Sequence record: OW849071.1 | DNA: 64,000 nucleotides | Source of the DNA: a plasmid | Reading direction: 5' to 3' (one strand) | Part shown: piece after piece, positions 6,151-59,983 of the stretch | Layout of the letters: each line of letters starts with the position of its first letter | Numbering within the stretch: the first letter of the stretch is position 1 | Notes under the pieces: model-generated | Told to the model about the DNA's origin: nothing | The model's database searches: none | The model's input: the letters and a program-made list of their open reading frames with translations, nothing else | Translations under genes and position numbers: made by a program

Positions 6151-9100
6151 TCAGTCGCCCCCGAGTGTTTTCTCGCGGTTAAGGTCACGAACCATGTCAC
6201 GCTCCACAGCCTGCAGACGCTCACGCTGCAGACGTTCTGAGGCCACCTGCTGAATCGCCGCCTCCTGGCGCCGGAACTGAGGATCATCCGGTAGCGTCGT
6301 TTTCTCCGTACCCGGCCGGTCACGCTCCAGTCCGCGAATGACGTCCCCGATAACCTCTTTCACCCGGTCCGCCGGCTCGCCGGCTTTACGCGCCTCCCCG
6401 GCCACTTCCCGGGCAGTCTGTTCCGCCTGTTTTTCCATTTCCCGGCGCTGCTGTTCTTCAGCCGCCCGCTGTGCCAGTACCTCTGGCGGGAGGATAATGT
6501 CAGCCCCGGCCTGCGGTACCGGAGCCACCGGCGCAGGTTCAGCCCATACCCGCCCACCGGTCATGGCCCCGGGGTTCCAGGGGCGGTCATCACCGGCCAG
6601 CCGCACCACCACCCCCGTATCGGGATTGTCGCGGGCCATTCTGACGCCCTCCCCCATATTCCCGGCCAGCAGGCTTTCTCCGTTGCGGCTGTTCTGCAGC
6701 GCCACGAACCGGGCGTCTTCATTGCCCATAATTCGTCCCCCTCCGCCGATAGCCTCCAGCCGTCCGTCCCGATCGGTCAGCGGGCTGAGCCAGATACCGG
6801 CGGCTTTCCCGTTTTTATCAAATGCCGGCAGCGCCACATGCGGCTGAGGGTACTTTTTCCCCGGAGAAATGAATTTTCCCGGTGAACTTCCCTGTGCCAG
6901 ACCGGACTGCTGCAGGGCTGCCCGGCCCGCGGCGGTTTCATCCAGTGGCCTTGCCCGCCCGAACAGCAGATCGGCGGTTTTCACCGCCCGGTCGTTACGG
7001 GGTTCAAGAATATCGTGCGCCGTCGCTTTCTCAGGTGAATGCTTGATGGCCTTTATCCAGCCCTCACGGCTGTCGGTGTAGACCTGAACATGCTGTTTCA
7101 TGCGGGATAAAGCCACATAGGCAGACTCAAAGCTGGCCATCTGTTCCCGGCCACCGGCCACCCCTTCCAGCGCGATGGCATACGGCTCGCTGGCCCCCTG
7201 GGCGCCGTGGGCGGTGATGGCGTAGGCGAGGTCGATATGCTGCTGTGCCTGCTCCGCCTTCGGGGTCAGCGTACGGGTGAGTTTGCCATCAGACAGCGTG
7301 ACACTGTCACCCGAAACAGACTGCACTTCCCAGATACTGTTGGCCACATAGCCGCGCTCCGGGTCACTTTTGCTGAAGCGCATTCGGTCCCCCTGAGACA
7401 CGGTGATCTTTTCCTGACGATAGAGCGTGACGCCTTCTGCCGATGCCTCCCGGGGTGAGATAAATCGCTCCTTTCCTTCACTGTCTGTCAGGGTGATCAG
7501 CTGATTATCCTTATCCACTTTGCTGATACGGTGGTATACGTTATCAACCAGCGCCACCGCCTCCTTGTGAGCCGTCCAGGTCGACAGTTTGCGCAGTTCA
7601 CCGTCACGGATGTTACTCGTGACCAGCACCGGCAGGGTGATTTCCTCTTTGCCGGTTTCCCCGTTCTCCCGCCGTGCGTCATGGATCAGACTGTTCAGCG
7701 CCCGCCGGTCCTTATTCAGATGGGTGATCACCAGCGTCTGCGACTGTGCCTCCGGGGTCCGTCCGGTATAGTCCTTCACCAGCGCCTCGTAGAGTGTCGC
7801 GGGCTGACCTTCCGGCAGGGTTTTCCCCTCGCTCAGCGCCTTTTCTATCGCCTTTTCCTGCTTTGGCGTGAATTCCACCACAGAACTGCCCGGCGCCCAT
7901 GCGCCTTCTTTTCTCGGCACCTGCTCCGGCGTGACCTGCTCGATGGTGGTCAGGGCGCGGTGCACATCCCGCTCAATCAGGCTGTAGACCGCCGGTCGCA
8001 GCTCAGGCATCTGGCGTACAATCTCTTTCATGATGGCAACGTCGGCGGCGCTGCGCTGCTGCGTCAGCCTGAACGGCTGGCCCGACGCGATGGGCGGCAG
8101 CTGGTCGGTATCCCCGCTGGGCACCGCCCGTCCACCGCCGGCGGCGATGAGGGAGTGGGCTTTTGCCATATCGGCCAGCCCCACCATCGAGCTCTCGTCG
8201 AGCAGGAACAGGGTGTTGCTGAAATCGGGTGTCTGCCCATTGCGCTGCAGCAGCTGCGTGTCGTGGAGGAACGACGCCGTCGTGCGCGCATCCACGCCAG
8301 CACTCTGCATTTCCCCGACCGCGCGATGCGTCGGCGCCAGACCGATGACGCGCGGGCGGGTCTCTTCCGGCAGCAGACTGATGGCACTCATGACTGCCCG
8401 GAACTGGGTGGTTTTCCCCACCCCGGCATACCCCTGAACCACCGTGAACCGGTCCGTGCTCTCCAGAATCATCCGGGTCGCCGCCCGCTGTCCGGCGGTC
8501 AGGTCCGTCATCAGACTGGCCGGCACGCGGTCCATCAGGGGGGCCACCGCGCCTTTACCTTCCAGCACGTGGGTCAGGATGCTTTTTTCGGCGTCCCAGG
8601 TCTGACGGGAAATCAGCAGGTCATTGCCGTAGCCGTGCGCCACCGGTACATTCAGCAACTGCCCCGACCTGATTTGTGCCTGGATGGTCGTGTCGATGTC
8701 CGCCATCGAAACCTTCCCGCCCCCGGTTTCCATTGCCGTCGCCAGCAGCTGGGGCCGGGAGAAGGTCAGGTCCTGGCTCTCAAGCAGCGGGATGGCCAGG
8801 TGAATGGCCTGTTCTGCCGGGGTATGCAGCCCGGCCTTCTGCTGCGCAATGGCCGTATCCAGGTCCGTCTCGCCGGATCGGGACTTCAGCTGCTCTGAGA
8901 CCACGCTGAACGCGGTATGCCGCGACAGCTTCTCCGTCGTGCGCGCCGCATCCTGCGCCGAGTACAGCCGGAGGTGACTTCCGCTCTGTGCCAGCTGGTT
9001 GAGGGTGGCGTTATCCAGCTCACGCTGCGTCACCGACGCAAAGACCGTTGCCGTCTCGCTAACCGACCTGCCGGGACTTTCCACCCAGCCGTGGCCGACT

Positions 9101-11409
9101 TTAATACCGTCAAACACGCCCGCGCCCGCGGCCAGGGTCTGCGTGGTTTTCTGCCCCGGCCGCTGTACCGTCAGCTGCCCCTCCTCCACTTTCATCACCG
9201 TGATGCTTTCCCCGCCTTTCAGGCGTGTGTCCGGTATCTTCCCAAGCACCGCCAGACGTTCCCCCTCTGCCACCGGCAGTGTATCTGCCCGGAACAGCGT
9301 CCACTGGCTGTCGACCGCGGAAACCTTCAGATCCAGACGACCCCCTTCCCGGTCTTTCAGGGTCAGCATATTGCTGCTCGCGGTCACCCGGTCAATGACA
9401 AAGCGATCGTGCGTCCGGTTCTCCGGATCCCAGCGTTCCATCACCATCCCCTCCCGGTAATAATCCCGCACGCCCCGGCTTTTGCTGTCCAGCCACACCG
9501 GCGTCAGGGCTGTAATGGTCGTGTCTTTCTCACCCAGCACCCCCTCCTGTCTGAGGGAGTCACGGATGAGGCCGTTGAGTACGCTCTGTTCACGGGTCCC
9601 GCTGATTTGGGCCACGCTTTCCTGCCCTTCACGCACGCTGACGGCAAACTCCTGTGCCAGCCGGCTGTAGCGTGCTCCTTTATCCGGTTCACTGATGATG
9701 TCGGCTGTGGTCTGATGGCCACCCTGCCAGCGATACGTATTCACGCCGCTGTCCTTCAGCACCGCCAGCGCGCTGCCGGTCCCGCTGCGCTTCCCGCTGT
9801 CGGAGAGCAGGACCTGCACGTTATGGCGCATCGCGCCATCGAGCAGGGAAATCGTTTCCTTCAGGCTCAGCTTCTCCGCCTGATCCACGATGAGTGTTCC
9901 GCCCGGAATAAACGCCGTCCCGTCCTGCAGGGCGGATTTACCGGTCACCGTTTCCCCGGCCAGACGCACATCACCGGCGAGAAAATCACGTGAGCGGTTA
10001 TCGGCCGCCAGGATATGGACATCACGCCCCTGCTCCCGGGACATCAGGGTTAACTCGGCCACCCGCTCCCGCTGGCCGGTGGCACCGCCCTGACCGGAAA
10101 CGATACCCATTACCGGGCGATCCTGCGCCAGCACGCTGACGGCATCGCTGAAAGGAACCTGGCGCACCACAGACGCATCGGGCGTGACGGAGACATGATT
10201 CTGGCGCTGCACCTCCTGACTCAGGGCTTTGACGGCGAGTTCATCGAGAACGTGGATGTTTGAGGTGAACAGCCCTTTCTCGCGATCGAGAGGGATAAGC
10301 TGCTCCCGTTCAATGGCGGCATCGATGCCCTTTCTCGCCAGCTCAAACACACCGTCCTTCGCCTCCAGCTGGCCGACCGTGCGTGCCAGCAGGTCGGCAT
10401 ACGTGAACTGCACCTTGCGGTCGCTGAGACCGGCAATCGCTTTCGTCACCACATCCGTGATATCCGGACCGTCAGTGTTCACCGGCGCGGCAGGTGCACG
10501 GGCCAGCTCTGCGGCTCGCGCATCGGCGGCCTCACGGTACCCCCGGATGTCAAACCCGGTCTCCTTCAGCGTGTTCATCCACTCCACCATCTTCTCTGCC
10601 GGATCGATGGCTTCTTTCGACTTGCGGGTATCGAGCGCGGCCACATCCCGTGACTTCAGGGAGGCATCGGGTCCTGCAGCCTCCCGGAGTTCCTGACTGC
10701 GCGTGGAAAACGACTCAACCGGCACGCCCTCCATCTCCCACATGCCATTCCGACCCGCATCGACTGTCTTGTAACCCATAGACTCAACATCGGCCCTGAG
10801 AGAGTTCTGGTATATCTTTCCGAAAGCGATGCGGTTGGCCAGTATGGTTTCGGAGAACCCGGTTTTACCGACGGTATCGCTGGCCAGCGTCTGCCATTTA
10901 TCGCCGTTCTGTGTCGCGTTGATAACCACGCTGTGTGTGTGTATCTGTGGATCCTGAGCGCGCGATGTATCATGGTTAAAGCGGGCAATAATCAGATTCC
11001 CGGTCAGGACTGTTTCAGACACGCCATCTTTCTTTACCCGTGTGGAAGCAAGGGACTCCACCTGGTTAAGAGCCACTGTTACCGCGCGATTATGAGCATC
11101 GATGAGACGCTTATCGCCGCCCAACATAGCCAGCATCGATACACTTTTCGGTGCCGAGAACGTCAGGTCATAACCGGGCCGGTGCTTATTCACGCCATCC
11201 TGTATCCGGGTCAGGTCGCTGCCATCAGGTAGTTTTCCCTGCAGAAGCTCCGTGAAGACCTGCTTGTCTACCTTTCCTTCAAGTCCCAGCAATTCTGCGC
11301 CTTTACCCTGCCAGCGCTCCTCCATGCTCCCGATGACGTAGTAATTGTCTTTCTCTGTGTAGTAGTTACCGGCACTGCCCGCCGATTTAACCTGGCTGAA
11401 ACTGAGCAT
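6151..11409 (-). CDS. traI: Relaxase/helicase TraI
   Basis: 1752 aa. N-terminus [40 protein letters not shown] (relaxase His triad); Walker A GYAGVGKTT. Near-collinear with F TraI along its length. Confidence 0.97.
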   Translation of the reverse strand: MLSFSQVKSAGSAGNYYTEKDNYYVIGSMEERWQGKGAELLGLEGKVDKQVFTELLQGKLPDGSDLTRIQDGVNKHRPGYDLTFSAPKSVSMLAMLGGDKRLIDAHNRAVTVALNQVESLASTRVKKDGVSETVLTGNLIIARFNHDTSRAQDPQIHTHSVVINATQNGDKWQTLASDTVGKTGFSETILANRIAFGKIYQNSLRADVESMGYKTVDAGRNGMWEMEGVPVESFSTRSQELREAAGPDASLKSRDVAALDTRKSKEAIDPAEKMVEWMNTLKETGFDIRGYREAADARAAELARAPAAPVNTDGPDITDVVTKAIAGLSDRKVQFTYADLLARTVGQLEAKDGVFELARKGIDAAIEREQLIPLDREKGLFTSNIHVLDELAVKALSQEVQRQNHVSVTPDASVVRQVPFSDAVSVLAQDRPVMGIVSGQGGATGQRERVAELTLMSREQGRDVHILAADNRSRDFLAGDVRLAGETVTGKSALQDGTAFIPGGTLIVDQAEKLSLKETISLLDGAMRHNVQVLLSDSGKRSGTGSALAVLKDSGVNTYRWQGGHQTTADIISEPDKGARYSRLAQEFAVSVREGQESVAQISGTREQSVLNGLIRDSLRQEGVLGEKDTTITALTPVWLDSKSRGVRDYYREGMVMERWDPENRTHDRFVIDRVTASSNMLTLKDREGGRLDLKVSAVDSQWTLFRADTLPVAEGERLAVLGKIPDTRLKGGESITVMKVEEGQLTVQRPGQKTTQTLAAGAGVFDGIKVGHGWVESPGRSVSETATVFASVTQRELDNATLNQLAQSGSHLRLYSAQDAARTTEKLSRHTAFSVVSEQLKSRSGETDLDTAIAQQKAGLHTPAEQAIHLAIPLLESQDLTFSRPQLLATAMETGGGKVSMADIDTTIQAQIRSGQLLNVPVAHGYGNDLLISRQTWDAEKSILTHVLEGKGAVAPLMDRVPASLMTDLTAGQRAATRMILESTDRFTVVQGYAGVGKTTQFRAVMSAISLLPEETRPRVIGLAPTHRAVGEMQSAGVDARTTASFLHDTQLLQRNGQTPDFSNTLFLLDESSMVGLADMAKAHSLIAAGGGRAVPSGDTDQLPPIASGQPFRLTQQRSAADVAIMKEIVRQMPELRPAVYSLIERDVHRALTTIEQVTPEQVPRKEGAWAPGSSVVEFTPKQEKAIEKALSEGKTLPEGQPATLYEALVKDYTGRTPEAQSQTLVITHLNKDRRALNSLIHDARRENGETGKEEITLPVLVTSNIRDGELRKLSTWTAHKEAVALVDNVYHRISKVDKDNQLITLTDSEGKERFISPREASAEGVTLYRQEKITVSQGDRMRFSKSDPERGYVANSIWEVQSVSGDSVTLSDGKLTRTLTPKAEQAQQHIDLAYAITAHGAQGASEPYAIALEGVAGGREQMASFESAYVALSRMKQHVQVYTDSREGWIKAIKHSPEKATAHDILEPRNDRAVKTADLLFGRARPLDETAAGRAALQQSGLAQGSSPGKFISPGKKYPQPHVALPAFDKNGKAAGIWLSPLTDRDGRLEAIGGGGRIMGNEDARFVALQNSRNGESLLAGNMGEGVRMARDNPDTGVVVRLAGDDRPWNPGAMTGGRVWAEPAPVAPVPQAGADIILPPEVLAQRAAEEQQRREMEKQAEQTAREVAGEARKAGEPADRVKEVIGDVIRGLERDRPGTEKTTLPDDPQFRRQEAAIQQVASERLQRERLQAVERDMVRDLNREKTLGGD

Positions 11410-13721
11410 CAGAAATTCCCTCCAATCTCGACATCATCCTGCTCATCGTGACGGTGGCTGTGGTTGATATTGACTTCCTCACGCCGCTGCATATCCCGCT
11501 GTGTCTGCTCATCTGCCAGCCAGGCGTCATACGCCTGCATGTCCTCGATGACGCCGTCCTCGTTCATGCCGGCCGGCAGCATGTCCTGTCCCTGTTCCGC
11601 TGACTGCTGCGCCAGTTCCTGTTGTGTCCCGCCTGCAGCTGTTGCAGGGGCACCGGAAGAGGATGCTGTTGAGGCAGCAGCGGCCGCTGCGGCTGCTTTT
11701 GGTTTGATCAACGGTACGGTCGTGACCCGCAGGACGGAAGGCTCCGTTGTTCTGACGGAAGGTTCCGCTGCCGGACGCTTTATTGTCGGCGGCGCTTTTA
11801 CCGGTTCCGGAGATACTGTCATGTCTGCTGGCGCAGGCTGACTGACCGGCTCAGGTTGTTCACCGGCGTGACTGTTTGTATCAGCGGGCCCGGATGCCGG
11901 CGCATCCGGAGTGAAAAGCGCCCTGGCAAGGCTGCCTTCAGCTTCCCGCGCTTCAAGCAACGCACTGAGCCGCGCATCCACCCGCGCATCGAGAGTGCGA
12001 GGAATAAATCCCTCGGCAATTTTCGGACGCGGCTTGTATTTGAGGGCCAGCTTCACGGCCGGATATGGCCCGGGCAGCGTGACGTAACAGGACAGGTCAG
12101 GCAGCGTCTGAATATCGGAGTAACTGACCAGCGTTTCCCGCTCTTTTTCTTTCCCGGTCGATACACCATCACGCACCGGGTCAGCACCGTAAGAGTACTG
12201 CTCGCTGGCTTTGAGGATTTCCTTCTCGCCAATTTCACCGGCAGCAAACTCCGCGATCTCCCTGCTGGGTGAACGGAAGAAGGCCCGGGTGTTCATTACG
12301 TCAAAGAGCGTGGCGGCAGGCTTAACGCCATAGATGTCTTCCAGCTGGGCATAGGACTGAATACCGAAAACATAACAACCACCAAATTTACGCGCCTCAG
12401 GGAGGATTTCGACCAGGTCAGGCAGCTTGTGCAGCGTGGGGAGCTCGTCGGCGAATATCCACACGCGCCGGTTACGGTTCTCCCCCATCGCCAGCAGGCC
12501 GCGGATGGCAATTGACAGCCACATCGAGATAACCGGCTTCAGGGAAGCATGGGTGTCGGCGTTGGAGGAGATAAACAGCCAGCCATTGGGTCTGTCCTCA
12601 CGGACACCGCGCATCCAGTCCCGGATAGTGAACGGCTCCCCGTTCTTCTCGATGCCCTGCAGGTAGCGAATAGCCTTGACGTAGTTGGTCAGCACGGCAC
12701 GAATGGAGATGGCCGTTTTCTCAATTTTCTCTTCAACCAGGTTCGCTGCCGGCGTGTTCTGCAGATAAGCGCGCAGCTTGTCGATTTTAATGGACAGCAT
12801 GGTATCGACCAGCTTCTCGTAGCTGCGATCGTCGTCTTCGCGCATCAGATACGCGCCTTCGGCAAAGATAGTGCGACCGGAGCCCTGCCAGAACGGGTCT
12901 TCTTTGGTACCCATCGGGATAAGGGTGTTGGAGATGTTGTCGAAGTCCGGCAGCGTCAGGCACTCTTTCCACAAATCCCAGGCAGCGCAGCGCGAATCCA
13001 GCGGGTTGAGGATTTTATCCAGTGACGGGTCGTAATAGCTTTTGACGAACTCACAGGAGCGATCGTAAATGATGGCCATATCGCCACGTGCACGCACGTA
13101 GTTCAGTAGCCGGCGGATCACTTCTGATTTACCGGAACCTACGGTACCGTGGAGGCAAAAGTTCTGGATTTCGGAGTTTTTAAGAATAGGCAGATCGCCA
13201 ATTTTAATATCGGAGGCCATACCATCACGCTTCATCTGACGGGCCACTTCTTTGGGCTTATCGGAAAGCTGGCGCCCGCCGGTATTCTCATCCTCACTCT
13301 GCTGTTTCCCCTGGCGGCCCAGCACCCAGCTGGCGATGAAGAACGTCACGATACAGATAACAAGAGAAACCACGGCTGCAAAGACGAAACTGGTCCACAG
13401 CTGCTCTCCGCACCAGATAGTATATTTATCGGCCAGGATTTGTTCTGAGGTATATTCCAGCGACTGGCCGTAATACTGAATGGTGTATACCGGCTGGGAA
13501 CGAATAATATCGCGCATCGGACCCAGCGTCGTACACCACCAGTATACGCAGCCGTTCACAAAGGTTTGCCAGCTGAGCCGGTACATCAGCATCAGCCCGC
13601 ACAGCACCCAGAATAAAATAAACAGCACGTAGAAAATAATATTGGCAATCTGACCAAACATGCGAAAGCGCATATTGGCGATCTGACCACCCTGCGTCAT
13701 ATCTTTGGCATTAAAACTCAT
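11409..13721 (-). CDS. traD: Type IV coupling protein TraD
   Basis: 770 aa, N-terminal TMs, Walker A (GTVGSGKS), TraD-like body; stop overlaps traI start (ATGA). C-terminus Ala/Gln-rich low complexity. Confidence 0.95.
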
Positions 13722-39211: not shown

Positions 39212-39931
39212 CTATTGATTTAACAAAAAATTAACACCATCGTTTAATATCGAAACCACATTCGATATAAACTTTCCATAACTTAGAGTATAGATCGATG
39301 ACATTATGATATAGTCACGATTATCAAAGCTCAGTTCCTTTTTTATTTTACTAACTGTATTTTTTGAGGTTTGCACCCCAACACCTGTAATCTTCGAAAT
39401 AGATGCATGAGAAAACCCAACCGCATACAGATTAAAGATAGCCCAGTCAGACTTTGCTGAACGCTGAATTCTTTCGATATATCTTTGCATCTTTATAGAA
39501 AAGTCATTGTATTCCATTGAAGGATGAGGCATCGGTTCATCTTCATTTATAAAAACCCATTTACTGTATGTATCTTCATTAATCGAGAACGTTTCAATAA
39601 AAACAGTCCAAAGTGAACCTGCCAACCAAATATTTTTAACAAGTACAGCAGAACCTTCTGAAAACGATTTCAGTTCTGACTGCATCAGTTCCAGTTTGAT
39701 CTCCAGGGAGAGATCCAGAAACCAGCTTCCAGGTGCTCTGGGTGTATCAAATGCTCCAGTTCCACCAGATGTTAAGAAAATTTTGTCAAAGGTTGGGCTG
39801 GTGTGAATTACTTCGCCCCGGGAATCACGAATAAAAGCAGGGCAAGATGAAATATTAAGCATCTCGCGCATAGAATGAATGGAATCTGTTTGACTGCGCA
39901 CAGCAATATGACTACGATCCTTCGCACACAT
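39212..39931 (-). CDS. traJ: Transfer activator TraJ
   Basis: 239-aa AT-rich ORF at the traJ position between traM and traY; C-terminal HTH-like segment (ISKITGVGVQTSKNTVSKIKKEL). Confidence 0.7.
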   Translation of the reverse strand: MCAKDRSHIAVRSQTDSIHSMREMLNISSCPAFIRDSRGEVIHTSPTFDKIFLTSGGTGAFDTPRAPGSWFLDLSLEIKLELMQSELKSFSEGSAVLVKNIWLAGSLWTVFIETFSINEDTYSKWVFINEDEPMPHPSMEYNDFSIKMQRYIERIQRSAKSDWAIFNLYAVGFSHASISKITGVGVQTSKNTVSKIKKELSFDNRDYIIMSSIYTLSYGKFISNVVSILNDGVNFLLNQ

Positions 39932-39934
39932 AGG

Positions 39935-40020
39935 CGCCTCCTGGAAAGGACACTATGGATAGTTGACGTTCGGGGGGACTAGCCCCGGACGTCAACGCTT
40001 CAACAAATTTTATTACAACC
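39935..40020 (+). ncRNA. finP: FinP antisense RNA (antisense to traJ leader)
   Basis: Opposite strand of the traJ 5' UTR; strong stem-loop GACGTTCGGGG-GGACTAG-CCCCGGACGTC at 39965..39993, typical of FinP/traJ SLII. Confidence 0.5.
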
Positions 40021-48962: not shown

Positions 48963-50887
48963 AGGGATACCCGTTACCGGGTACCCCCCGCACAGATCCC
49001 GGCGTGCGCTATTCACGCACCGGGCTCCTGCCTTGGGTGTCTGGCGGTGAACCGCTCCACAGGCCATGGATGCAGAACCCGAACCTTCGGCAGCCATACG
49101 GCTGCCAGTCTGTTTGCTTTCGTCCATGTCGTATCATCCTGCTGGCTCCTGCGCCTCAGCGCCCGTCGCCAGAGGTCTGTTACGTATATCCTGAACTTCC
49201 GCATCATGGGATAGTTGCCCGGGACTGAGTGGTAGTTCAGGTATCCCTGAACCACTCTCCTGAGCCATTTTCCCTGTTCGGGGATTGAGTAATGCCAGCG
49301 CTTTCGTAGTCCGTCCTTGATCGCTTTCAGTGTCGCCGTCATCCTGCCCCGGCGTGTCTTTCGTATCAGCATGAACCTGCCACTACGATCTTTCCCACTG
49401 ATATGCGTGAACCCGAGGAAGTTGAACGTTTCTGGTTTACCTTTTCCCCTGCTGGCGCGGTTTTCGGCTGCGAAGCGGCCGAACTCCGTCAGTCGGGTTT
49501 TCTTCGGATGTACCGTGAGTCCGAACTCCTTCAGTCTGCGCTGCATGGCTATACGAAAGCATTGAGCGTCGATTCGCTTGTCGAACCCGATGACTATGTC
49601 ATCTGCGTATCTGACCATGACCACATTGCCTGTGGCATGGCGGCGTCGCCACTGATGCGCCCACAGATCGAAGACATAGTGGAGGTAGATGTTTGCCAGC
49701 AGCGGCGAGATAACCGCACCCTGTGGGGTGCCTTCCTCCGATGCCCGCCATTCTCCTTCCTCCGATGCCCGCCATTCTCCTTCCTCTGAGGTCCCGGCTG
49801 TGAGCCACTTTCGTATGAGCCTGATTACCCTCTGGTCGCCGATTCTGTGTTCTATGAACCTGATTAGCCATTCATGGCTTACCTTGTCGAAGAACTGACT
49901 GATATCGGCATCCAGTACCCAGTTTACATTGGTCCGAACCAGCCCTGTGGCCAGTGCGTCCAGCGCATTGTGCTGGCTTCGCCCGGGTCTGAACCCGTAT
50001 GAAAACCCCATAAAGTCATTTTCGTAGACTGCATTCAGGATCTTAACCAGCGCATACTGGACGATTTTGTCCTCCAGTGAGGCGATGCCGAGCGGGCGCT
50101 GTTTTCCATCCGCTTTCGGGATGTAGTGCCGCCTGCCGGGCTGAGCCCTGTAACTACCCTGATGAAGCCTCCGGTGCAGATCTGCTATGTTGACCTTCAG
50201 GTTTTCGGCGTAGTCCTTCCACCTGACACCATCAACTCCGGCAGCCGCTTTCCTGCTCAGGGAGAGGAATGCGTTCTCCAGTGCCTCTGCTGTCAGGAGG
50301 TGGAACAATGCGGTAAACCGTTCTTTCTTCCGCTGCTTCGCAGCTTCCCGCACGCGTGACAGCCTCTGTGACATACTTTCCCGGCTCTGCGTCCGGCGCA
50401 TGTGTGGCTGTTCCGCGTTTCCCTTGGCCCCGCTCCTTCGCTCCACTGACTCCGCTCCTTGCGGATTGTTCGCCAGATTCGCAGCTACTATGAGCGAGTC
50501 CGACTTCTCCTCTCCGTACATCACCGGCTTCGGCTCCTCGCCTTCCCGGTGCGGGCCATCTCCGGCACTGGCAGATGGTCAGAGGGGAGATCTCCCGGTT
50601 CCCGCGTAAAGATCGTATTGACATGCCAGGGTCTCAGACCCCGCCGGGTCCATATGGCACTCGCAGTAACGCACCCTATGATGTTGCCTTCCGTAAACAG
50701 TACAACGTCGGCACCCGGGAATTTAATATACATTTCGTGGCTCAATGGCTGGCCTGTCAACACCCCTGTCAACGCTTCGCCCCATACCTCACGGTATACA
50801 ACGCATGACTCGGGGACCCTGTGGATTGCTGGTCCTTCAATGGTCGGGGACTTTCACCCCTTGATCTTTACCGGTCTCCCGGCGCAC
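48963..50887 (-). mobile_element. Group II intron (ORF in domain IV; endonuclease-less RT, class C-like)
   Basis: 5' end GTGCGCC on minus strand. Domain V-like hairpin with AGC triad (GAGCCCGGTGCGTGAATAGCGCACGCCGGGATC) ~40 nt from 3' end. Domain VI hairpin GGGTACCCG-GTAA-CGGGTATCCC with bulged A; ends ..CTAC. Confidence 0.7.
49013..50401 (-). CDS. Group II intron reverse transcriptase/maturase
   Basis: RT motifs (..GTPQGAVISPLLANIYL.., YADD in MVRYADDIVIGF), maturase X domain; no C-terminal HNH/En domain; start uncertain (longest ORF from 50524). Confidence 0.85.
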   Translation of the reverse strand: MRRTQSRESMSQRLSRVREAAKQRKKERFTALFHLLTAEALENAFLSLSRKAAAGVDGVRWKDYAENLKVNIADLHRRLHQGSYRAQPGRRHYIPKADGKQRPLGIASLEDKIVQYALVKILNAVYENDFMGFSYGFRPGRSQHNALDALATGLVRTNVNWVLDADISQFFDKVSHEWLIRFIEHRIGDQRVIRLIRKWLTAGTSEEGEWRASEEGEWRASEEGTPQGAVISPLLANIYLHYVFDLWAHQWRRRHATGNVVMVRYADDIVIGFDKRIDAQCFRIAMQRRLKEFGLTVHPKKTRLTEFGRFAAENRASRGKGKPETFNFLGFTHISGKDRSGRFMLIRKTRRGRMTATLKAIKDGLRKRWHYSIPEQGKWLRRVVQGYLNYHSVPGNYPMMRKFRIYVTDLWRRALRRRSQQDDTTWTKANRLAAVWLPKVRVLHPWPVERFTARHPRQEPGA

Positions 50888-52622: not shown

Positions 52623-52700
52623 CCGTCGAAATGACAGACGGGACTTGCCGCAAGAGCTTACTTTACCGATCATACAGATGACTTGTCTCAGGGGGGGACC

Positions 52701-52952
52701 ATGACAAATATCATTCTGTGTGATGTGACTGCCAGCATCAGCGAACTTAAAAACGATCCGGTGGCCACCGCCAGTGCCGGCGGCGGCTACCCGGTCGCGA
52801 TTATTGACCGCAACCGCCCTGTTTTTTATTGTGTGCCCGCGGCTCTGTATGAACAAATGCTCGATGAGCTGGACGAAAAAGACCTAGTGCAAATGATAAC
52901 AGAACGTCAAAACCAGCCGCTGCGTGAAGTGGATCTCAATCAGTATCTGTGA
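52701..52952 (+). CDS. YafN-like (Phd/YefM family) antitoxin, apparently without cognate toxin
   Basis: ISELKNDPVATAS...PVAIIDRNRPVFYCVPAALYEQMLDELDE resembles YafN; only an 11-codon ORF follows before sequence composition changes. Confidence 0.55.
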   Translation: MTNIILCDVTASISELKNDPVATASAGGGYPVAIIDRNRPVFYCVPAALYEQMLDELDEKDLVQMITERQNQPLREVDLNQYL

Positions 52953-53196
52953 TGTGCTCCGGTGCGAGGAGCAAGGAATGTATTAAGCCTATGTTACCCA
53001 CTCGATGATCAATGCTGTCTTAAAACACTATAAAATCAATAAAATAGAATTATATCTGCATGTCGATACCATACAAAATACCATGGTAAGAAAACTTGGA
53101 GACTGTACTGATCGTGTCGCCCGACGCAAAACGCTTTTAGACTGACAACTTGCACACCACAAAGGATATTCATCCAAAAGCAGTTATTCAAAGAAG

Positions 53197-55149
53197 TCAA
53201 CGCCCTGGGTTGGATCTTCCGCTTGCCTCCACCAGACTTACATCATCACGAAGCAATGTCACCATCGCTTCATGATGTGCTGTTATCTGCTGATCGTCCC
53301 AGTTTGTATTTCGGGTGATTTCCGCCATTCTCTTGAGCTTGGGACTTTGAAGTTCAATTGTATCCTTGAAGTTTTCGGCCTTTGCTCTGGGGAGGCTATT
53401 GCTGAATTTTGAGTTCGCGCTGACGCTTACGAGCGCGAGGTTGCCAAGCAGGTTAAGGCTAGAACCTGAAACAACCGCGCCCGACTGTTCTTTGTCAGGA
53501 TGCTGTGGATAGAAGTGCTCAATGGAAGTTCTGAACTGAAATTTGAAATCTCGTTTTGAGGAGTCACTCAACAGAAGATAGTCGAGATACGAAAAGACGA
53601 TACGGCTGATACCAAACCCTTGTGGTTGCTGATCTTTCTCAAAGGAGAATGTCTCTTTAACCTTGCTGCGGGCATATCCCTTCAACAAATCGGCAAGATC
53701 CGCATGTTTCACGTCTCGAGGGGCTTTAACGGAGAGCCAGCGAAGAACTTTGGTAATCCAGTGCATCGTTCGCGGAGAAGTGTAGGTAATCCGAAGCATG
53801 GACTGAAGCAGCAATACATCTCGGGTATGTGGGTCAGCACTCCCGTCCTCCTCTAAGCTTCCATTGCTGGCCGAGAAAACATGGATGTACGTCGGGGTTG
53901 GCTTCTTGTCCCCGCCTCCTTTTTTCAGTCGCTGGAGAGACCAATCGCCATCGTCACCGATGTTTGCCGTGAATTGACGCTTCAAGATGAAGCCATCGAA
54001 GAGGTTGCGGCACTTGAGAAGCATAAATGCAAAACTACGCACCCAATCGGCTTTAGCATCGGGTACATTATTTACGGCGTCGTCAAATGACTTGATGAGG
54101 CGCTTGTCGTCAAGCAGGCCTTCGTCTTCGACCTCATCGCCTTTCATAATTCTTAGAACGTGTAGCAGAAAGGCCGGAAACTCAATAGTCGAACGAAACC
54201 GCTCGTTGCCCTCGTCTTCAGTGGAATTTGACTCGAGCTCTTTAGCGTATTTTGACAACGCCTCATCCAAGGACAACGATACCCCTTCGGAGGATTGCCT
54301 TGATGAATTGATGCCGGATTGCGGACGACTTTCCATTAGCGAAGAGAAGCTGGTCACCTCCAGCCAGGACCATTCATCACCAAATACTTTGTTTCGCAAA
54401 CTTGTGTCACCACGGGTCAGAGACATCTGGACATAAGAATCCATGTCAGCACAGGAATCCCAAACCCACGCAAAGCATTCGCGTTCATATTGATTGGGCA
54501 GTTTGCTCATCAGGCGAGCCTTAACAATATCAACCTGCTTGAGTTGCTGCCCACGAGTGTTCATGATCTCGAAGTAGCGATTGAGGTCGGTATTGGGTGG
54601 CAGCGAGGCACGGACGACAGTCACCTTCGTTAGCAAGAAATCGGAGAATTTTTCGCGTGAGCGATTAAGGTTTTCATTTTGTTTGAAGAACTGATTGATG
54701 ATGCTGTAGCCTTCATGAATGCCAGCATCTGCATTACTCGTGGAGCCCTGCGGTCGAACGTGCTCCTTAGCCGCCTCCTGTGCTACTCGCAGCAGGGCCT
54801 CAGTTGCCCGTGCGCGCGACTCATATTGCAAGTGGCCTGCATGGCCAACCGACGGCTTCTCACCCTCACCGTCTTGCTCCAGGAAGGTAAGAAGCAGATA
54901 GAGGGTTGTAAGTCGTTGTTGTCCATCTATGACCTCGAACTCATCCTCTCTACCCCGCTTGATTACAACAAGGTTCCCAAGAAAATAGTTGTCCTGGCCC
55001 CCTACCACCGAGTCTTGAATATCGCTAATAAGTTGCTCAATCTGTTCGGCCCGCCAAGCATAGTTCCGTTGATAAATAGGAATCAGATAATTGTCAGTGA
55101 ATAACTTGCCTACTGTTAACAGTTCAGGTTTCAACTCCTTCTTGCTCAT
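53197..55149 (-). CDS. GmrSD-family protein: N-terminal DUF262 + C-terminal DUF1524 (His-Me finger nuclease), putative type IV restriction/defence effector
   Basis: DUF262 motifs (LIPIYQRNYAWRAEQIEQLISDI; IDGQQRLTTL; FEIMNTRGQQL) and C-terminal DUF1524-like HNH (SIEHFYPQHPDK...LGNLALVSVSANSKFSNS); start overlaps upstream gene stop (ATGA). Confidence 0.85.
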   Translation of the reverse strand: MSKKELKPELLTVGKLFTDNYLIPIYQRNYAWRAEQIEQLISDIQDSVVGGQDNYFLGNLVVIKRGREDEFEVIDGQQRLTTLYLLLTFLEQDGEGEKPSVGHAGHLQYESRARATEALLRVAQEAAKEHVRPQGSTSNADAGIHEGYSIINQFFKQNENLNRSREKFSDFLLTKVTVVRASLPPNTDLNRYFEIMNTRGQQLKQVDIVKARLMSKLPNQYERECFAWVWDSCADMDSYVQMSLTRGDTSLRNKVFGDEWSWLEVTSFSSLMESRPQSGINSSRQSSEGVSLSLDEALSKYAKELESNSTEDEGNERFRSTIEFPAFLLHVLRIMKGDEVEDEGLLDDKRLIKSFDDAVNNVPDAKADWVRSFAFMLLKCRNLFDGFILKRQFTANIGDDGDWSLQRLKKGGGDKKPTPTYIHVFSASNGSLEEDGSADPHTRDVLLLQSMLRITYTSPRTMHWITKVLRWLSVKAPRDVKHADLADLLKGYARSKVKETFSFEKDQQPQGFGISRIVFSYLDYLLLSDSSKRDFKFQFRTSIEHFYPQHPDKEQSGAVVSGSSLNLLGNLALVSVSANSKFSNSLPRAKAENFKDTIELQSPKLKRMAEITRNTNWDDQQITAHHEAMVTLLRDDVSLVEASGRSNPGR

Positions 55150-56426
55150 TGCAGCCCCTTGATAAAAGCAACGAGTTCCTTTTCGTGGTTATCGCTGTAT
55201 GGCTTACTTGTTATTGGAAGTTTGCGGACAACACTTCCAGTCATCGCATTACGTAGCAAAACAAAAGGCGATTTATTTGCATCGTTTTTACCTCGCGCTC
55301 GGTTGTCAGCAGATACAAATTGCACACGAAGTAACTCGACCCGCAAGGCATATGCCCATGCGAATAACCTATTTCGCACTTCATCTACATCTTCATCGCC
55401 AAACTTGTTTGTATAGCAAAGCAGCGCGGCAATGAACAATTCGTACACGTAGCGGTAGCGACTTTGAGATGGGCCAAAGTTTTTGAAACCTCTGTCAATA
55501 ACCTCTTGTTCCAGTATCTTCAATTCGTCAAGCATGAATGTCACCATCTCGAAAAATGAGCGTCCTGCGATTATCGGGGCATCAAGCTGAAAGCGGCTGC
55601 GCCCGGCGTTTCGTGCATCATGTGTAGAGGATACCGACCATGCACTTAGAAGTGGCATAGCGGCTTGTGCTGCAAGGTGATATCGCAGATTTGGCGAAAA
55701 TGACCTGTGGGATCGTGATGAAATGCCCTTGAACATGCCGATGTCCCGAATAGTAAATTCGAGCGAGCTTTCGCCTCGTGACCACTTGGATATCCGGTAT
55801 AAAAAAGTAGAAAAAAGCCTGTCCAGATCCTCATCGTTTACGGCTTCCCAAGCCTCAACGACAGCCACTTTCATAGCAGCGGACTCATCGTGCATTTCGC
55901 GCAGGTGGTGTGCTTTGAGCAAGTCGTGAGGGGCAAGCGGTTTGCCGCGATAGTTCTGGGAATCAAAGACACGAAATGCCTCATCAATATCGTCCGTCAC
56001 AATACGCACCAACTGACATTTGTGACAGATAAAATCCAAAAACTCTTTTTTATCTTCCAACTGCGACAGGCGCCTTTGAAGCTCTATCCAAACTAGGGAG
56101 ACAGGAGTGTCGCTGTTACCAGACATCGAAATTTGATGATTTATCGGATCTAAGGCCGCAAGAATCATTCGCAAAGTCAGCAGGCGCTGCTGCCCGTCGA
56201 CTACATTGAGATACTCACCATCATCGTGAAGAATGATTGCACCCAAAACATAGGGAATATCTTTTCGTTCGGTATCTCGAAGAGCTTCGCTGATATCATC
56301 CACCAGTTGTAGAGCAGTCGATACATCCCAACTGTATGGGCGTTGATAGTTCGGTATCCGAAGGCCTTGCTTGAGTAGTTCATCCACGGTGACTGCACTA
56401 ACACCGTTCTCTCCGTTAATCGCCAT
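55146..56426 (-). CDS. DUF262-only (GmrS-like) partner protein, first gene of two-gene operon
   Basis: RIPNYQRPYSWDVSTALQLVDDI; VVDGQQRLLTL; FDSQNYRGKPLAPHDLLK; no C-terminal nuclease domain. Confidence 0.85.
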   Translation of the reverse strand: MAINGENGVSAVTVDELLKQGLRIPNYQRPYSWDVSTALQLVDDISEALRDTERKDIPYVLGAIILHDDGEYLNVVDGQQRLLTLRMILAALDPINHQISMSGNSDTPVSLVWIELQRRLSQLEDKKEFLDFICHKCQLVRIVTDDIDEAFRVFDSQNYRGKPLAPHDLLKAHHLREMHDESAAMKVAVVEAWEAVNDEDLDRLFSTFLYRISKWSRGESSLEFTIRDIGMFKGISSRSHRSFSPNLRYHLAAQAAMPLLSAWSVSSTHDARNAGRSRFQLDAPIIAGRSFFEMVTFMLDELKILEQEVIDRGFKNFGPSQSRYRYVYELFIAALLCYTNKFGDEDVDEVRNRLFAWAYALRVELLRVQFVSADNRARGKNDANKSPFVLLRNAMTGSVVRKLPITSKPYSDNHEKELVAFIKGLQ

Positions 56427-56935
56427 TCCTATGTCCCTTCATTGACGCTTTTCTATTTTCTCAGCGTATTTTCCGCAAACTTTATTCACCTATATGGATA
56501 CTTCGATTCCGAGTGGCGGCTGTCTTGTTCACAATTTCTATCACGAGGTGCTCCTCTGGCGCATATTTAACGATCTGGGGCAAGGGTCGAGAGAGCGGTT
56601 CTGATCAAAGCGAGCATCGATGGCATCAGCACAGCGCTGCAATGCACCCGGTTGTCGATACCATGGCATTTGCTGATACGGTCACATGGTATTTGCTATA
56701 TCTTCGATTCAGCGTCGGCCTTAAACCATAAAAAATGCCATTGATAATGCAGTCATATCATCAATGGCACTCACTAAATCAAATAAAACAATAGGCTAAA
56801 TAATAGCCTCACTCCCACTCTATTATCAACTGCCTATATATCATATTAATTTACTTAGATTAAATATCAAATAAAATATCAATGCCATGACTAATGCCAT
56901 ATCTAAAAAATATGAACACAGGGTACATCTCCTGC

Positions 56936-57338
56936 TTATCTCACGCAGCCTAGAAACAGCATTACGATCCGATAAGCTGGCTCATAGCAAGACAGTACCC
57001 TCGGGTCGGGGTCTACTTCGCCGTGTAGTAGGGCGTTTCGCATAGCGTAGATCGTTTCAATCAATCCCGACAATAGCTCTTCAGGGGAGCACTGAAACTC
57101 CATCGCCCCGACTTGCAGGCGATCGGCTCCACCACGCAGTAGGTCGCGCCTCGGGCGCGGGTTGCAGCCGTCATAGAGCTGCCGCAGCGTCGTTTGCTGG
57201 GCTTTAGAGAGGTTCGCAGTAAAGTCTGCATGGCCATAGATCGTGTTCGGCTCATAATGCACCTGAACGTGCTGGAATTTCACGTTTCCATTGCGAACTG
57301 AGGTGACGGTGATCTGGATGTTTCCGCCCGCGATCTTC
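56936..57338 (-). pseudogene. C-terminal fragment of an unknown gene truncated by IS1
   Basis: Open frame runs into the IS1 inverted repeat with no plausible native start; GC content differs from the adjacent DUF262 genes. Confidence 0.3.
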
Positions 57339-57393
57339 GGTGATGCTGCCAACTTACTGATTTAGTGTATGATGGCGTTTTTGAGGTGCTCCA

Positions 57394-57669
57394 GTGGCTT
57401 CTGTTTCTATCAGCTGTCCCTCCTGTTCAGCTACTGACGGGGTGGTGCGTAACGGCAAAAGCACCGCCGGACATCAGCGCTATCTCTGCTCTCACTGCCG
57501 TAAAACATGGCAACTGCAGTTCACTTACACCGCTTCTCAACCCGGTACGCACCAGAAAATCATTGATATGGCCATGAATGGTGTTGGATGCCGGGCAACC
57601 GCCCGCATTATGGGCGTTGGCCTCAACACGATTTTACGTCACTTAAAAAACTCAGGCCGCAGTCGGTAA
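57394..57669 (+). CDS. insA: IS1 InsA
   Basis: [43 protein letters not shown]... Confidence 0.88.
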
Positions 57670-57690
57670 CCTCGCGCATACAGCCGGGCA

Positions 57691-58089
57691 GTGACGTCAT
57701 CGTCTGCGCGGAAATGGACGAACAGTGGGGCTATGTCGGGGCTAAATCGCGCCAGCGCTGGCTGTTTTACGCGTATGACAGGCTCCGGAAGACGGTTTGC
57801 GCACGTATTCGGTGAACGCACTATGCCGACGCTGGGGCGTTTTATGAGCCTGCTGTCACCCTTTGACGTGGTGATATGGATGACGGATGGCTGGCCGCTG
57901 TATGAATCCCGCCTGAAGGGAAAGCTGCACGTAATCAGCAAGCGATATACGCAGCGAATTGAGCGGCATAACCTGAATCTGAGGCAGCACCTGGCACGGC
58001 TGGGACGGAAGTCGCTGTCGTTCTCAAAATCGGTGGAGCTGCATGACAAAGTCATCGGGCATTATCTGAACATAAAACACTATCAATAA
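57691..58089 (+). CDS. insB: IS1 InsB' (expressed as InsAB' by -1 frameshift)
   Basis: C-terminal transposase frame ...[47 protein letters not shown]. Confidence 0.75.
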
Positions 58090-58863
58090 GTTGGAGTCAT
58101 TACCCTCAGAACCATTGTTAAAGCGGTACTGGGTAGATTTGAAGTCAATATCAGACCCCTCACTCTTATAACGCAGCATATTTAACAATTTGTCCATTTC
58201 AGTTCTCTTGCTTAGGTTTCATTAACATATTTTAAATAAGCCACTGTCTGAGTGATTGTGTCTGGTACGCAGAACAAACAGGACCTTCATTCAGTTGCTC
58301 CACTCAAACTGTGATTAGCTACTTCCGCTTTTTTCACAAAGCGGACGATATCCCGTTAAAGCGCTTGCATATACTGTAAAACAAAATTCAATACCCGGTA
58401 AAAGAAAGCTTGGCTTCCAGCCAGTAATATGAGGTCCTGTTTGCTTGTTGTACTGTCCCCTCATCCGTAGACAAATTTCATCCTCGCAGAGAGGCCTATT
58501 AGAAAGTCTTCGGGCTTAATCCATAGAGGAAGTTGTGGCGTCAGATATGATTGCAGGGCACTTCAATGTAATCAAATATATCCTGCCGGGCCATGGCCCG
58601 GGCTTGATATATTCACTTCCTTACACGCACTTATATGAGTAAACAAGAAACGATGCTGCCTTAGCATTATCCCAGCAATTGCTACTTTAGACATGCTTTA
58701 GCTCTAACATTGGAACAATACTACTCTTTTGTACCTTTGCCGATGTCGGCATGGTACTCACCTTCACAAATTCAATGACAGCCATATGGTAATTTTTTAC
58801 TAATTTTTGGCGCGCCATTATGAAGTTAGTCGAGTGACCTGCCCCCAGGATTAGATACAACCG

Positions 58864-59696
58864 TCAGTTAGTAAGGTCGGTTTGTTTACCTTCACATTTT
58901 ACATTTCGCCACCGTGCTGCAAACTCTGATGGCGTCTGATAATTCAGTGCTGAATGTGGACGACACTCGTTATAATCCTGCCGCCAGTCATTAATGATTT
59001 TCCTTGCGTGAACGATATCGCTGAACCAGTGCTCATTCAGGCATTCATCGCGAAATCGTCCGTTAAAGCTCTCAATAAATCCGTTCTGCGTTGGCTTCCC
59101 GGCTGGATTAAGCGCAACTCAACACCATGCTCAAAGGCCCATTGATCCAGTGCACGGCAAGTGAACTCCGGCCCCTGGTCAGTTCTTATCGTCGCCGGAT
59201 AGCCTCGAAACAGTGCAATGCTGTCCAGAATACGCGAGACCTGAACGCCTGAAATCCCAAAGGCAACAGTGACCGTCAGGCATTCCTTTGTGAAATCATC
59301 GACGCAGGTAAGACACTTGATCCTGCGACCGGTGGAAAGTGCGTCCATGACGAAATCCATCGACCAGGTCAGATTGGGCGCCGCCGGACGGAGCAGCGGC
59401 AGACGTTCTGTTGCCAGCACTTTACGACGTCTTCTGCGTTTTACGCCCAGGCCACTGAGGTGATAAAGCCGGTACACGCGCTTATGATTAACATGAAGCC
59501 CTTCACGGCGCAGCAACTGCCAAATACGACGGTAGCCAAAACGCCTGCGCTCCAGTGCCAGCTCAGTGATGCGCCCTGATAAATGCGCATCAGCAGCCGG
59601 ACGGTGAGCCTCATAGCGGCAGGTCGACAGGGATAAACCTGTAAGCCTGCAGGCACGACGTTGCGACATACCGGTCGCATCACACATCAGCATCAC
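58864..59696 (-). pseudogene. IS3-family transposase OrfB with -1 frameshift near the catalytic region (~59096)
   Basis: Frame breaks at GGGAAGCC (expected GGGAAAGCC). Restoring one A gives ..[43 protein letters not shown].. to a stop at 58864. Confidence 0.55.
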
Positions 59697-59719
59697 GGCT
59701 TCCCGCTTCTGGTCTGTCG

Positions 59720-59983
59720 TCAGTACTTTCGCCCAAGAGCCACCTGAAGCGCCTCTTTATCCAGCATGGCTTCGGCAAGCAGCTTCTTGAGTCTGGCGTT
59801 CTCTTCCTCAAGCGACTTCAGGCGCTTAACTTCAGGCACCTCCATACCGCCATACTTCTTACGCCAGGTGTAAAACGTGGCATCGGAAATGGCATGCTTG
59901 CGGCAGAGTTCACGGGCGGGTACCCCAGCTTCGGCTTCGCGGAGAATACTGATGATCTGTTCGTCGGAAAAACGCTTCTTCAT
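59720..59983 (-). CDS. IS3-family transposase OrfA (HTH)
   Basis: MKKRFSDEQIISILREAEAGVPARELCRKHAISDATFYTWRKKYGG... leucine-zipper C-terminus. Confidence 0.8.
   Translation of the reverse strand: MKKRFSDEQIISILREAEAGVPARELCRKHAISDATFYTWRKKYGGMEVPEVKRLKSLEEENARLKKLLAEAMLDKEALQVALGRKY

Follow-up and report, generated by a model that had tools for sequence, protein, structure and literature searches.

The subject of this study is a pair of overlapping genes in a stretch of plasmid DNA of 64,000 nucleotides (nt; sequence record OW849071.1), referred to as the window. The two genes, termed A and B, are located on the minus strand and most probably code for a TgvAB-family system that stands alone: a modification-dependent (type IV) restriction enzyme with two subunits that belongs to the GmrSD superfamily. 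The plasmids carrying it are conjugative Klebsiella plasmids of the IncFIB(K)/IncFII(K) type. Gene A (tgvA-like, 56426..55146) specifies a protein of 426 amino acids (aa) with a DUF262 NTPase/sensor domain and a helical DUF7834 domain, devoid of a nuclease domain. Gene B (tgvB-like, 55149..53197) specifies the putative effector, a protein of 650 aa that combines DUF262, a helical linker and a DUF1524 His-Me finger nuclease. Both open reading frames (ORFs) in the ORF list of the window are intact, and the assignments are based on these ORFs, on Pfam matches and on similarity to TgvA and TgvB. The TgvAB family was first described in 2024 for VPI-2 of Vibrio cholerae (PMC11411939; Gomez & Waters, bioRxiv 10.1101/2024.04.05.588314); the locus is a divergent member of it rather than a new kind of system.

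Protein A was matched by GmrSD_N (PF03235, DUF262) at residues 19-175 (nt 55902..56372, minus strand; E value 1.6e-28) and by DUF7834 at residues 186-413 (nt 55188..55871, minus strand; E value 3.5e-55), with both Pfam matches above the gathering score, and GmrSD_C (DUF1524) was absent. A motif search located YQRPYSW at residues 27-33 and DGQQR at residues 77-81 (nt 56184-56198). Residues D77, G78, Q79, Q80 and R81 were invariant in three alignments of diverse homologues, as was YQRPY, which is conserved across phyla. The DUF7834 region is all-helical, lacks a His-Me finger and is similar to the helical core that GmrSD-family proteins have in their C-terminal half. An AlphaFold2 model of A (predicted local distance difference test score 85.9) matched the folds of SspE, DndI and BrxU; in structure comparisons, its DUF262 fold corresponded to that of BrxU and its helical half to the structure of the SspE C-terminal domain. 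Judged from the model, A looks like a GmrSD protein from which the His-Me finger has been lost. TgvA likewise consists of GmrSD_N and DUF7834 (E value for DUF7834 3.4e-38), and DUF7834 is the signature of the partner protein. An earlier annotation made by a model from the letters alone (the sequence-only reading) had recognised DUF262 and the two motifs in the upstream product, as Pfam and the motif search agree, but had taken DUF262 to be its only domain and thus missed DUF7834.

Protein B was matched, again above the gathering scores, by GmrSD_N at residues 14-214 (nt 54508..55110, minus strand; E value 4.5e-34) and by GmrSD_C (PF07510, DUF1524) at residues 521-631 (nt 53257..53589, minus strand; E value 7.3e-15). 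The DUF262 domain carries DGQQR at residues 75-79 (nt 54913-54927), and the nuclease domain contains the His-Me finger core SIEHFYP, with H545, followed by GNLALVSVSANSKFSN (residues 541-584, nt 53398-53529, minus strand); the codon of the predicted catalytic His545 occupies nt 53515-53517. The residues D75-R79 were invariant among homologues, and E544, H545, G569, N570, L571, N579, S580 and N584 were invariant in 14 diverse homologues. The nuclease region could be aligned with the EH..P and N..L..N elements of DndI (9jfl) and SspE (6jiv). These Pfam results bear out the proposal, made from the letters, that the downstream product combines an N-terminal DUF262 with a C-terminal DUF1524 His-Me finger.

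At the junction of the two genes (...CTGCAATGAGC...), the ATG of B shares bases with the TGA stop codon of A, which gives an ATGA start/stop overlap (55146..55149, minus strand), and a Shine-Dalgarno-like AAGGGG is found 7-12 nt 5' of the start of B. The sequence of the junction, the junctions of homologous loci and the overlap of tgvA and tgvB point to translational coupling, as had been proposed together with the lengths and coordinates of both products, which proved exact.

When A was compared with TgvA by BLASTP, 27% identity was obtained over 377 aa (E value 2e-28), the alignment covering residues 22-364 of A and thus spanning both domains. B was 29% identical to residues 1-399 of TgvB over 420 aa, including the linker (E value 5e-36). 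For these comparisons, the first ~400 residues each of TgvA and TgvB were taken from Table S3 of PMC11411939. In that study, TgvA was described as a DUF262 protein and TgvB as a protein with DUF262 and DUF1524 (PMC11411939), encoded by genes that overlap by 8 bp (PMC11411939; bioRxiv 10.1101/2024.04.05.588314). The two systems share a first gene with DUF262 and DUF7834, a second gene with DUF262, linker and DUF1524, overlapping reading frames, DGQQR in both proteins and the His-Me finger in the second. They differ in that A and B are only 27-29% identical to their counterparts and are located on a Klebsiella IncF plasmid outside a type I restriction-modification (R-M) operon, with no hsd genes in the window. 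Table S5 of PMC11411939, the output of the authors' two-gene TgvAB MacSyFinder model (VC1767-66), lists the N-terminus of A at least 54 times and that of B at least 56 times for K. pneumoniae plasmids (e.g. AIX87316.1/AIX87315.1), with the identity covering ~110 N-terminal residues. Since both N-termini appear there as matches of the TgvAB model, the pair is already catalogued bioinformatically as a TgvAB homologue. The sequence-only reading of the locus as a two-component, paired-DUF262 enzyme of the GmrSD-type (type IV) class is in agreement with the domains and the similarity to TgvAB, with the TgvAB-like architecture and with the pairing of A and B across loci. Its suggestion that the system might be not yet characterised is superseded by the published architecture and gene order of TgvAB and by the entries in Table S5 (PMC11411939).

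The functional expectations derive from TgvAB. TgvA and TgvB are each necessary and jointly sufficient for defence, and TgvB alone confers no protection even when over-expressed (PMC11411939; bioRxiv 10.1101/2024.04.05.588314). The system restricts the T-even phages T2, T4 and T6, whose DNA contains sugar-modified 5-hydroxymethylcytosine (5hmC), as well as all BASEL Tevenvirinae, and T2 mutants that escape it have lost the alpha-glucosyltransferase (PMC11411939; bioRxiv 10.1101/2024.04.05.588314; PMC12409362). Defence is abolished by the exchanges G94A and R97A in the DGQQR motif of TgvA and by G81A (DGQQR motif), H571A and N602A in TgvB (PMC11411939). The counterparts of all of these essential residues (TgvA G94/R97; TgvB G81/H571/N602) are invariant in the homologues of A and B. 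From the TgvAB experiments, we infer a need for both proteins, a dependence on DNA modification and an anti-phage function for the pair described here, and the locus represents a real and probably active defence module.

The following mechanism is proposed. A and B would be made jointly from one translationally coupled mRNA. B would act as a complete GmrSD-type polypeptide, in which a DUF262 NTPase/modification sensor is joined by a helical linker to a DUF1524 His-Me nuclease, and A as a paralogue in which the DUF262 NTPase/sensor and the helical core (DUF7834) are retained but the nuclease is missing. Most likely, the two proteins would form a hetero-oligomer comparable to the intertwined homodimers seen for BrxU and SspE. 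Both DGQQR nucleotide-binding sites of this complex would gate the nuclease of B, its single kind of nuclease, such that incoming hypermodified DNA is cut. No methyltransferase would be required, because the host's own DNA is without the modification. No cognate methyltransferase is found near the pair, as had been stated before.

Why a complete GmrSD-type enzyme should need a nuclease-less paralogue is a question already posed in the TgvAB papers (PMC11411939; bioRxiv 10.1101/2024.04.05.588314). A rival reading is that B is sufficient on its own, in the manner of GmrSD, BrxU or HEC-06, with A as an accessory that serves either as a decoy or guard against IPI*-type anti-restriction proteins or as a regulator restraining the nuclease of B. 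B does contain a complete single-chain GmrSD architecture, HEC-06 and BrxU act alone, and the authors of the TgvAB study themselves raised anti-inhibitor and regulatory options for TgvA (PMC11411939). However, the failure of TgvB alone to protect and the loss of defence upon mutation of DGQQR in TgvA (PMC11411939) speak against a self-sufficient B, as do the invariance of DGQQR and YQRPY in A across phyla and the near-constant pairing of the two genes (73 of 74 loci; see below), as would be expected of a core subunit rather than of an optional accessory. A self-sufficient B is therefore considered improbable.

The consistency of this pairing was apparent from 80 genomic loci with A-like proteins, distributed over Actinomycetota, Bacteroidota, Bacillota, Pseudomonadota, Spirochaetota and Verrucomicrobiota and including one Methanobrevibacter metagenome-assembled genome (MAG). 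Enough downstream sequence was available for 74 of them, and in all but one of these a B-like gene (DUF262, linker and DUF1524) was located directly 3' of the A-like gene on the same strand. For 66 of the 73 pairs, the junction ranged from an overlap of 60 nt to a gap of 200 nt; the commonest overlaps were 4, 8, 11 and 14 nt, with the 4-nt overlap seen here being the most frequent (13 loci). Pairing of A and B is thus near-obligate across phyla. The pair in the Methanobrevibacter sp. MAG (locus 6971-10220), whose first protein is 37% identical to A, suggests a spread of the cassette between domains, with contamination of the MAG as a possible explanation. One gene of the pair in MF116002.1 is annotated as 'RloF', the name of a Campylobacter jejuni DUF262 protein encoded within a type I R-M locus and an older name for relatives of the TgvAB family.

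Unbiased clustering of the other neighbouring ORFs at the 80 loci retrieved HsdR (13 loci), HsdS (12 loci) and HsdM (11 loci), and no other family, Dnd- or Ssp-like families included, recurred in more than three of them. Overall, hsd genes adjoin the pair in 10-18 of the 80 loci, several of which show the arrangement hsdM-hsdS-A-B-hsdR known from V. cholerae, and most pairs stand alone. The name TgvAB derives from its embedding in a type I R-M operon, which does not in practice define the family; stand-alone tgvAB was reported to be 17 times commoner than the five-gene form (PMC11411939), with which the predominance of stand-alone pairs among our loci agrees. A-B is a self-contained two-gene module.

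These neighbourhoods also bear on the possibility that A and B form a phosphorothioate-linked effector of the SspE/DndI type and rely on Dnd or Ssp genes at another site of the plasmid or in the host chromosome. The best matches in the PDB, by both sequence and fold, were indeed DndI (9jfl) and SspE (6jiv), and weak N-terminal matches to SspE models were obtained with PADLOC. The structures of SspE and DndI (PDB 6jiv, 7dri, 9jfl) are the best structural matches to A, with DUF7834 corresponding to the helical part of the SspE C-terminal domain. These matches, though, are due to the GmrSD fold that the proteins have in common: at the sequence level, the similarity does not extend beyond the DUF262 core, and the SspE models align over ~75 residues, compared with ~380-420 for TgvA and TgvB. 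SspE and DndI, moreover, depend on modification modules (sspABCD, dndBCDE), and neither dnd nor ssp genes occur in the 64-kb window or recur beside A-B in the 80 loci; the presence of the cassette on 379 plasmids in diverse hosts also argues against such a dependence. We regard this possibility as highly unlikely. The sequence-only reading had itself named partners from Dnd, Ssp or BREX systems elsewhere on the plasmid as a result that would overturn its proposal; no Dnd, Ssp, BREX or type I R-M genes were found in the window.

Among other known systems, GrwAB of WASA-lineage V. cholerae (PMC12137116; described in PMC12409362) is similar in being a two-protein, GmrSD-like type IV system with DUF262 in both proteins and DUF1524 in one, both of which are required. 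According to its description in PMC12409362, GrwAB differs in that the fusion protein is encoded first, whereas here the partner precedes the fusion; in that the C-terminus of GrwB is long and comprises several unknown domains, whereas A consists of 426 aa with a single DUF7834; and in its broader range, which includes phages with 7-deazaguanine. The single-chain enzymes Eco94GmrSD/EcoCTGmrSD, BrxU (= HEC-05) and HEC-06 share their full architecture and catalytic motifs with B, and HEC-06 models gave the best PADLOC matches, but these enzymes work as homodimers of one polypeptide, whereas here an obligate nuclease-less paralogue is encoded upstream. The original model of GmrS and GmrD, with DUF262 and DUF1524 on separate polypeptides, does not apply, since B has both domains and A a second DUF262; EcoCTGmrSD was later re-interpreted as a single protein.

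Several points weigh against the assignment to TgvAB or limit what can be drawn from it. An identity of 27-29% is too low for a safe transfer of substrate specificity, and the comparison of B with TgvB spans residues 1-399 of the latter only, i.e. DUF262 and the linker. The formation of a hetero-complex is itself inferred. A literature search gave no experimental work on the Klebsiella plasmid pair, NCBIfam yielded no match for A or B, and PADLOC 2.0 has no dedicated model for TgvAB; the comparison with PADLOC, as proposed previously, returned the DUF262-type models HEC-06, Orf5 and SspE, with matches mostly confined to the N-terminal DUF262. In addition, no strong sigma-70 site was detected by consensus scan in the region upstream of A (56427-56597), and the broader range described for GrwAB, together with the low identity, means that the target specificity of A-B is not safely transferable from TgvAB. 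By analogy with TgvAB, sugar-modified 5hmC is named as the target by default, as a tentative guess. It is also conceivable, if doubtful, that A-B recognises a hypermodification other than glucosyl-5hmC, for instance one of Klebsiella phages, with A as an exchangeable specificity or sensor subunit.

The limits of the TgvAB-like module were determined with its closest non-identical relatives (L082-L086), metagenomic contigs with 86-89% nucleotide and 84-89% protein identity. In blastn alignments with these contigs, the aligned span extended exactly from 53178/53187 to 56576/56597, with similarity ending abruptly on either side, and the flanking genes of the contigs were unrelated to those of the window. 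Because DNA similarity stops at 53178 and 56597 while the flanks differ, a mobile cassette of 3.4 kb can be delimited (53178..56597, minus strand), comprising ~170 bp of upstream region, A, B and 19 bp beyond the stop codon of B. The upstream region that travels with the cassette (56427..56597, minus strand) presumably contains the promoter and the 5' untranslated region. No LexA box was detected upstream of A in a sequence scan, and a CTG-N10-CAG match within gene A was taken as chance. Rfam found no RNA family in the interval 52.6-57.4 kb.

Relative to homologues with 84-89% protein identity, dN/dS was 0.13-0.15 for A and 0.19-0.20 for B, values indicative of purifying selection on both genes. 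These data are relevant to the notion that the pair is an inactive, hitch-hiking remnant. Insertions of IS1, an IS3-family element and a group II intron surround it, a truncated gene adjoins it and the consensus scan identified no promoter; yet both reading frames are uninterrupted and retain every catalytic residue, dN/dS is as low as 0.13-0.20, and the cassette is present at >=99% identity and in full length in 365 of 379 plasmids. Of all explanations considered, a remnant has the least to commend it and is extremely unlikely.

The 379 plasmids in PLSDB that carry the cassette at >=99% identity include 376 from Klebsiella. K. pneumoniae plasmids of the IncFIB(K)/IncFII type, for example pJYC03A from a sequence type 307 (ST307) strain, contain the DNA of the window with 100% identity. 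Hundreds of conjugative multidrug-resistance plasmids of this species have the cassette as a fixed component, among them ST307-type plasmids with TEM-1 and OXA-9. A recent acquisition as defence cargo, as initially proposed, is plausible in view of the sharp boundaries and the unrelated contexts, but the fixation at >=99% identity on 379 plasmids marks the cassette as an established part of the plasmid lineage. The guanine-cytosine (GC) content of A-B (48.4%) is indeed lower than that of the window (52.1%), the tra genes (52.6%), umuDC (56%) and sopAB (49.4%), so that the dip behind the description as a lower-GC insertion is real, although the contrast was overstated.

A second, divergent tgvAB-like pair was found on ~396 other Klebsiella plasmids in PLSDB, with an A protein (MESINNQ...) that is ~30-35% identical to A. 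Examples are AHM87930.1/AHM87929.1 of NJST258_1 and the pair on pKP27-MPH (NZ_CP041640.1, locus 9001-12487), and this pair is also listed in Table S5. It shares the architecture, the host genus and the IncFIB/IncFII setting but differs in sequence, R-M neighbours and plasmid position, being located directly 3' of a type I R-M operon (hsdM-hsdS-YecA-CSD-hsdR-SprT) near IncFII repA. A shared plasmid slot, i.e. a defence hotspot for both variants, was rejected on the grounds that the second adjoins the R-M operon and IncFII repA. Together, the two alleles occupy ~800 Klebsiella plasmids, and only the second adjoins a type I R-M operon.

The main selected role of the system could also be competition of the plasmid with other plasmids or with mobile elements, with incoming foreign-modified DNA being restricted rather than phages. 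Type IV enzymes are able to restrict modified plasmid DNA, the plasmid is conjugative, and the cassette lies between the leading region and umuDC on one side and the partition and replication genes on the other. Conjugative plasmids are not known to bear such hypermodifications, however, and the characterised relatives TgvAB, GrwAB, BrxU and HEC-06 were all shown to act on hypermodified phages. A role of this kind, which is compatible with restriction of modified phages and not exclusive of it, is deemed very unlikely as the main one.

Beyond what was known of the family, the analysis adds that DUF7834 is a signature of the partner, that the partner is structurally similar to a GmrSD core without the nuclease, that A and B are paired near-obligately across phyla, that the 3.4-kb cassette is sharply bounded and that Klebsiella plasmids have two divergent alleles. 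The partner signature, a GmrSD-like partner without a His-Me finger and obligate pairing in bacteria and at least one archaeon sharpen the question of why the paralogue is needed. If the TgvAB-like pair is active, resistance plasmids would also deliver restriction of hypermodified phages, which bears on phage therapy and plasmid ecology. If it recognises a different hypermodification with A as the specificity subunit, the two alleles on ~800 plasmids would shape which modified phages, therapeutic ones included, infect epidemic clones.

As a whole, the window represents part of a conjugative plasmid of the F type, with the IncFII CopA RNA at 875-963 and FinP at 39925-40002 (both identified by Rfam) and the transfer genes traI, traD, traG and traC. 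The leading region contains genes for DUF932, a small methyltransferase and DUF3560, to which the matching record adds antirestriction and Pol III theta genes. Along the window, the order is tra, leading region, group II intron, umuDC, a Phd-like ORF, A-B, IS1, an IS3-family element and sopAB. The adjoining umuDC operon is preceded by a perfect LexA box (CTGTATATATATACAG, 50889), in agreement with the SOS regulation assumed for it earlier. Between umuDC and B lies an ORF of 89 aa (52683-52952, plus strand), which ends only 244 bp from the stop codon of B. Its interpretation as an orphan antitoxin is supported in part: RefSeq labels it as an antitoxin and no toxin ORF follows it, but its Pfam match to Phd/YefM (20.2 bits) is below the threshold of 29.8.

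The group II intron, with its ltrA reverse transcriptase/maturase gene, extends over 49013-50524 and 50629-50854 (minus strand; Rfam group-II-D1D4-6, 184 bits). It is only ~35-70 bp away from the LexA box of umuD (50889) and its start codon (50926), and its reverse transcriptase shows a tandem duplication of 7 aa (SEEGEWRASEEGEWRASEEG). On the other side of A-B, a hairpin with a 16-bp stem followed by a T-run (56733-56772, minus strand) is situated between a truncated ORF and the conserved upstream region of A; its sequence resembles that of a terminator, which would shield the cassette from upstream transcription. The IS3-family element occupies 59037-59983 (minus strand) and carries an IS1222-type programmed frameshift signal (RF00383, 145 bits, 59636-59753) between its two ORFs.

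The truncated ORF (56936-57338, minus strand; ~133 real codons) abuts the left end of IS1 (57339-58104) and is truly cut by it, as had been proposed; the 138-aa ORF listed upstream of A takes its first codons from the end of IS1. No match was obtained for it in Pfam, PADLOC or NCBIfam, and it contains a stretch, RNALLHGE, that fits the Rx4-6H pattern of HEPN proteins and thus makes it a candidate only. The ORF is restricted to the same ~377 Klebsiella plasmids, and no relatives of it were found beside A-B pairs in the 80 loci. A 197-aa gene upstream of the pair in the closest relative (L084) was considered as its intact version but turned out to be unrelated. A short ORF start (MDKLLNMLRYKSEGSDIDFKSTQYRFNNGSE..., 58105-58197, minus strand) continues into IS1 at the right end of the element. 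As its reading frame differs from that of the truncated ORF across IS1, this start probably represents the 5' end of another disrupted gene. No target-site duplication of IS1 was found (flanks gcgatcttc and ctcagaacc), which suggests an IS1-mediated deletion or recombination; a simple insertion into one gene was rejected for this reason and in view of the out-of-frame flanking fragments. Compared with the canonical IS1 sequence, the copy shows apparent small insertions or deletions in insB at 57780-57800 (e.g. GACGGTTTGCGCACG). These fit the annotation in RefSeq, in which the transposase is split into two short coding sequences, and the IS1 copy may be defective.

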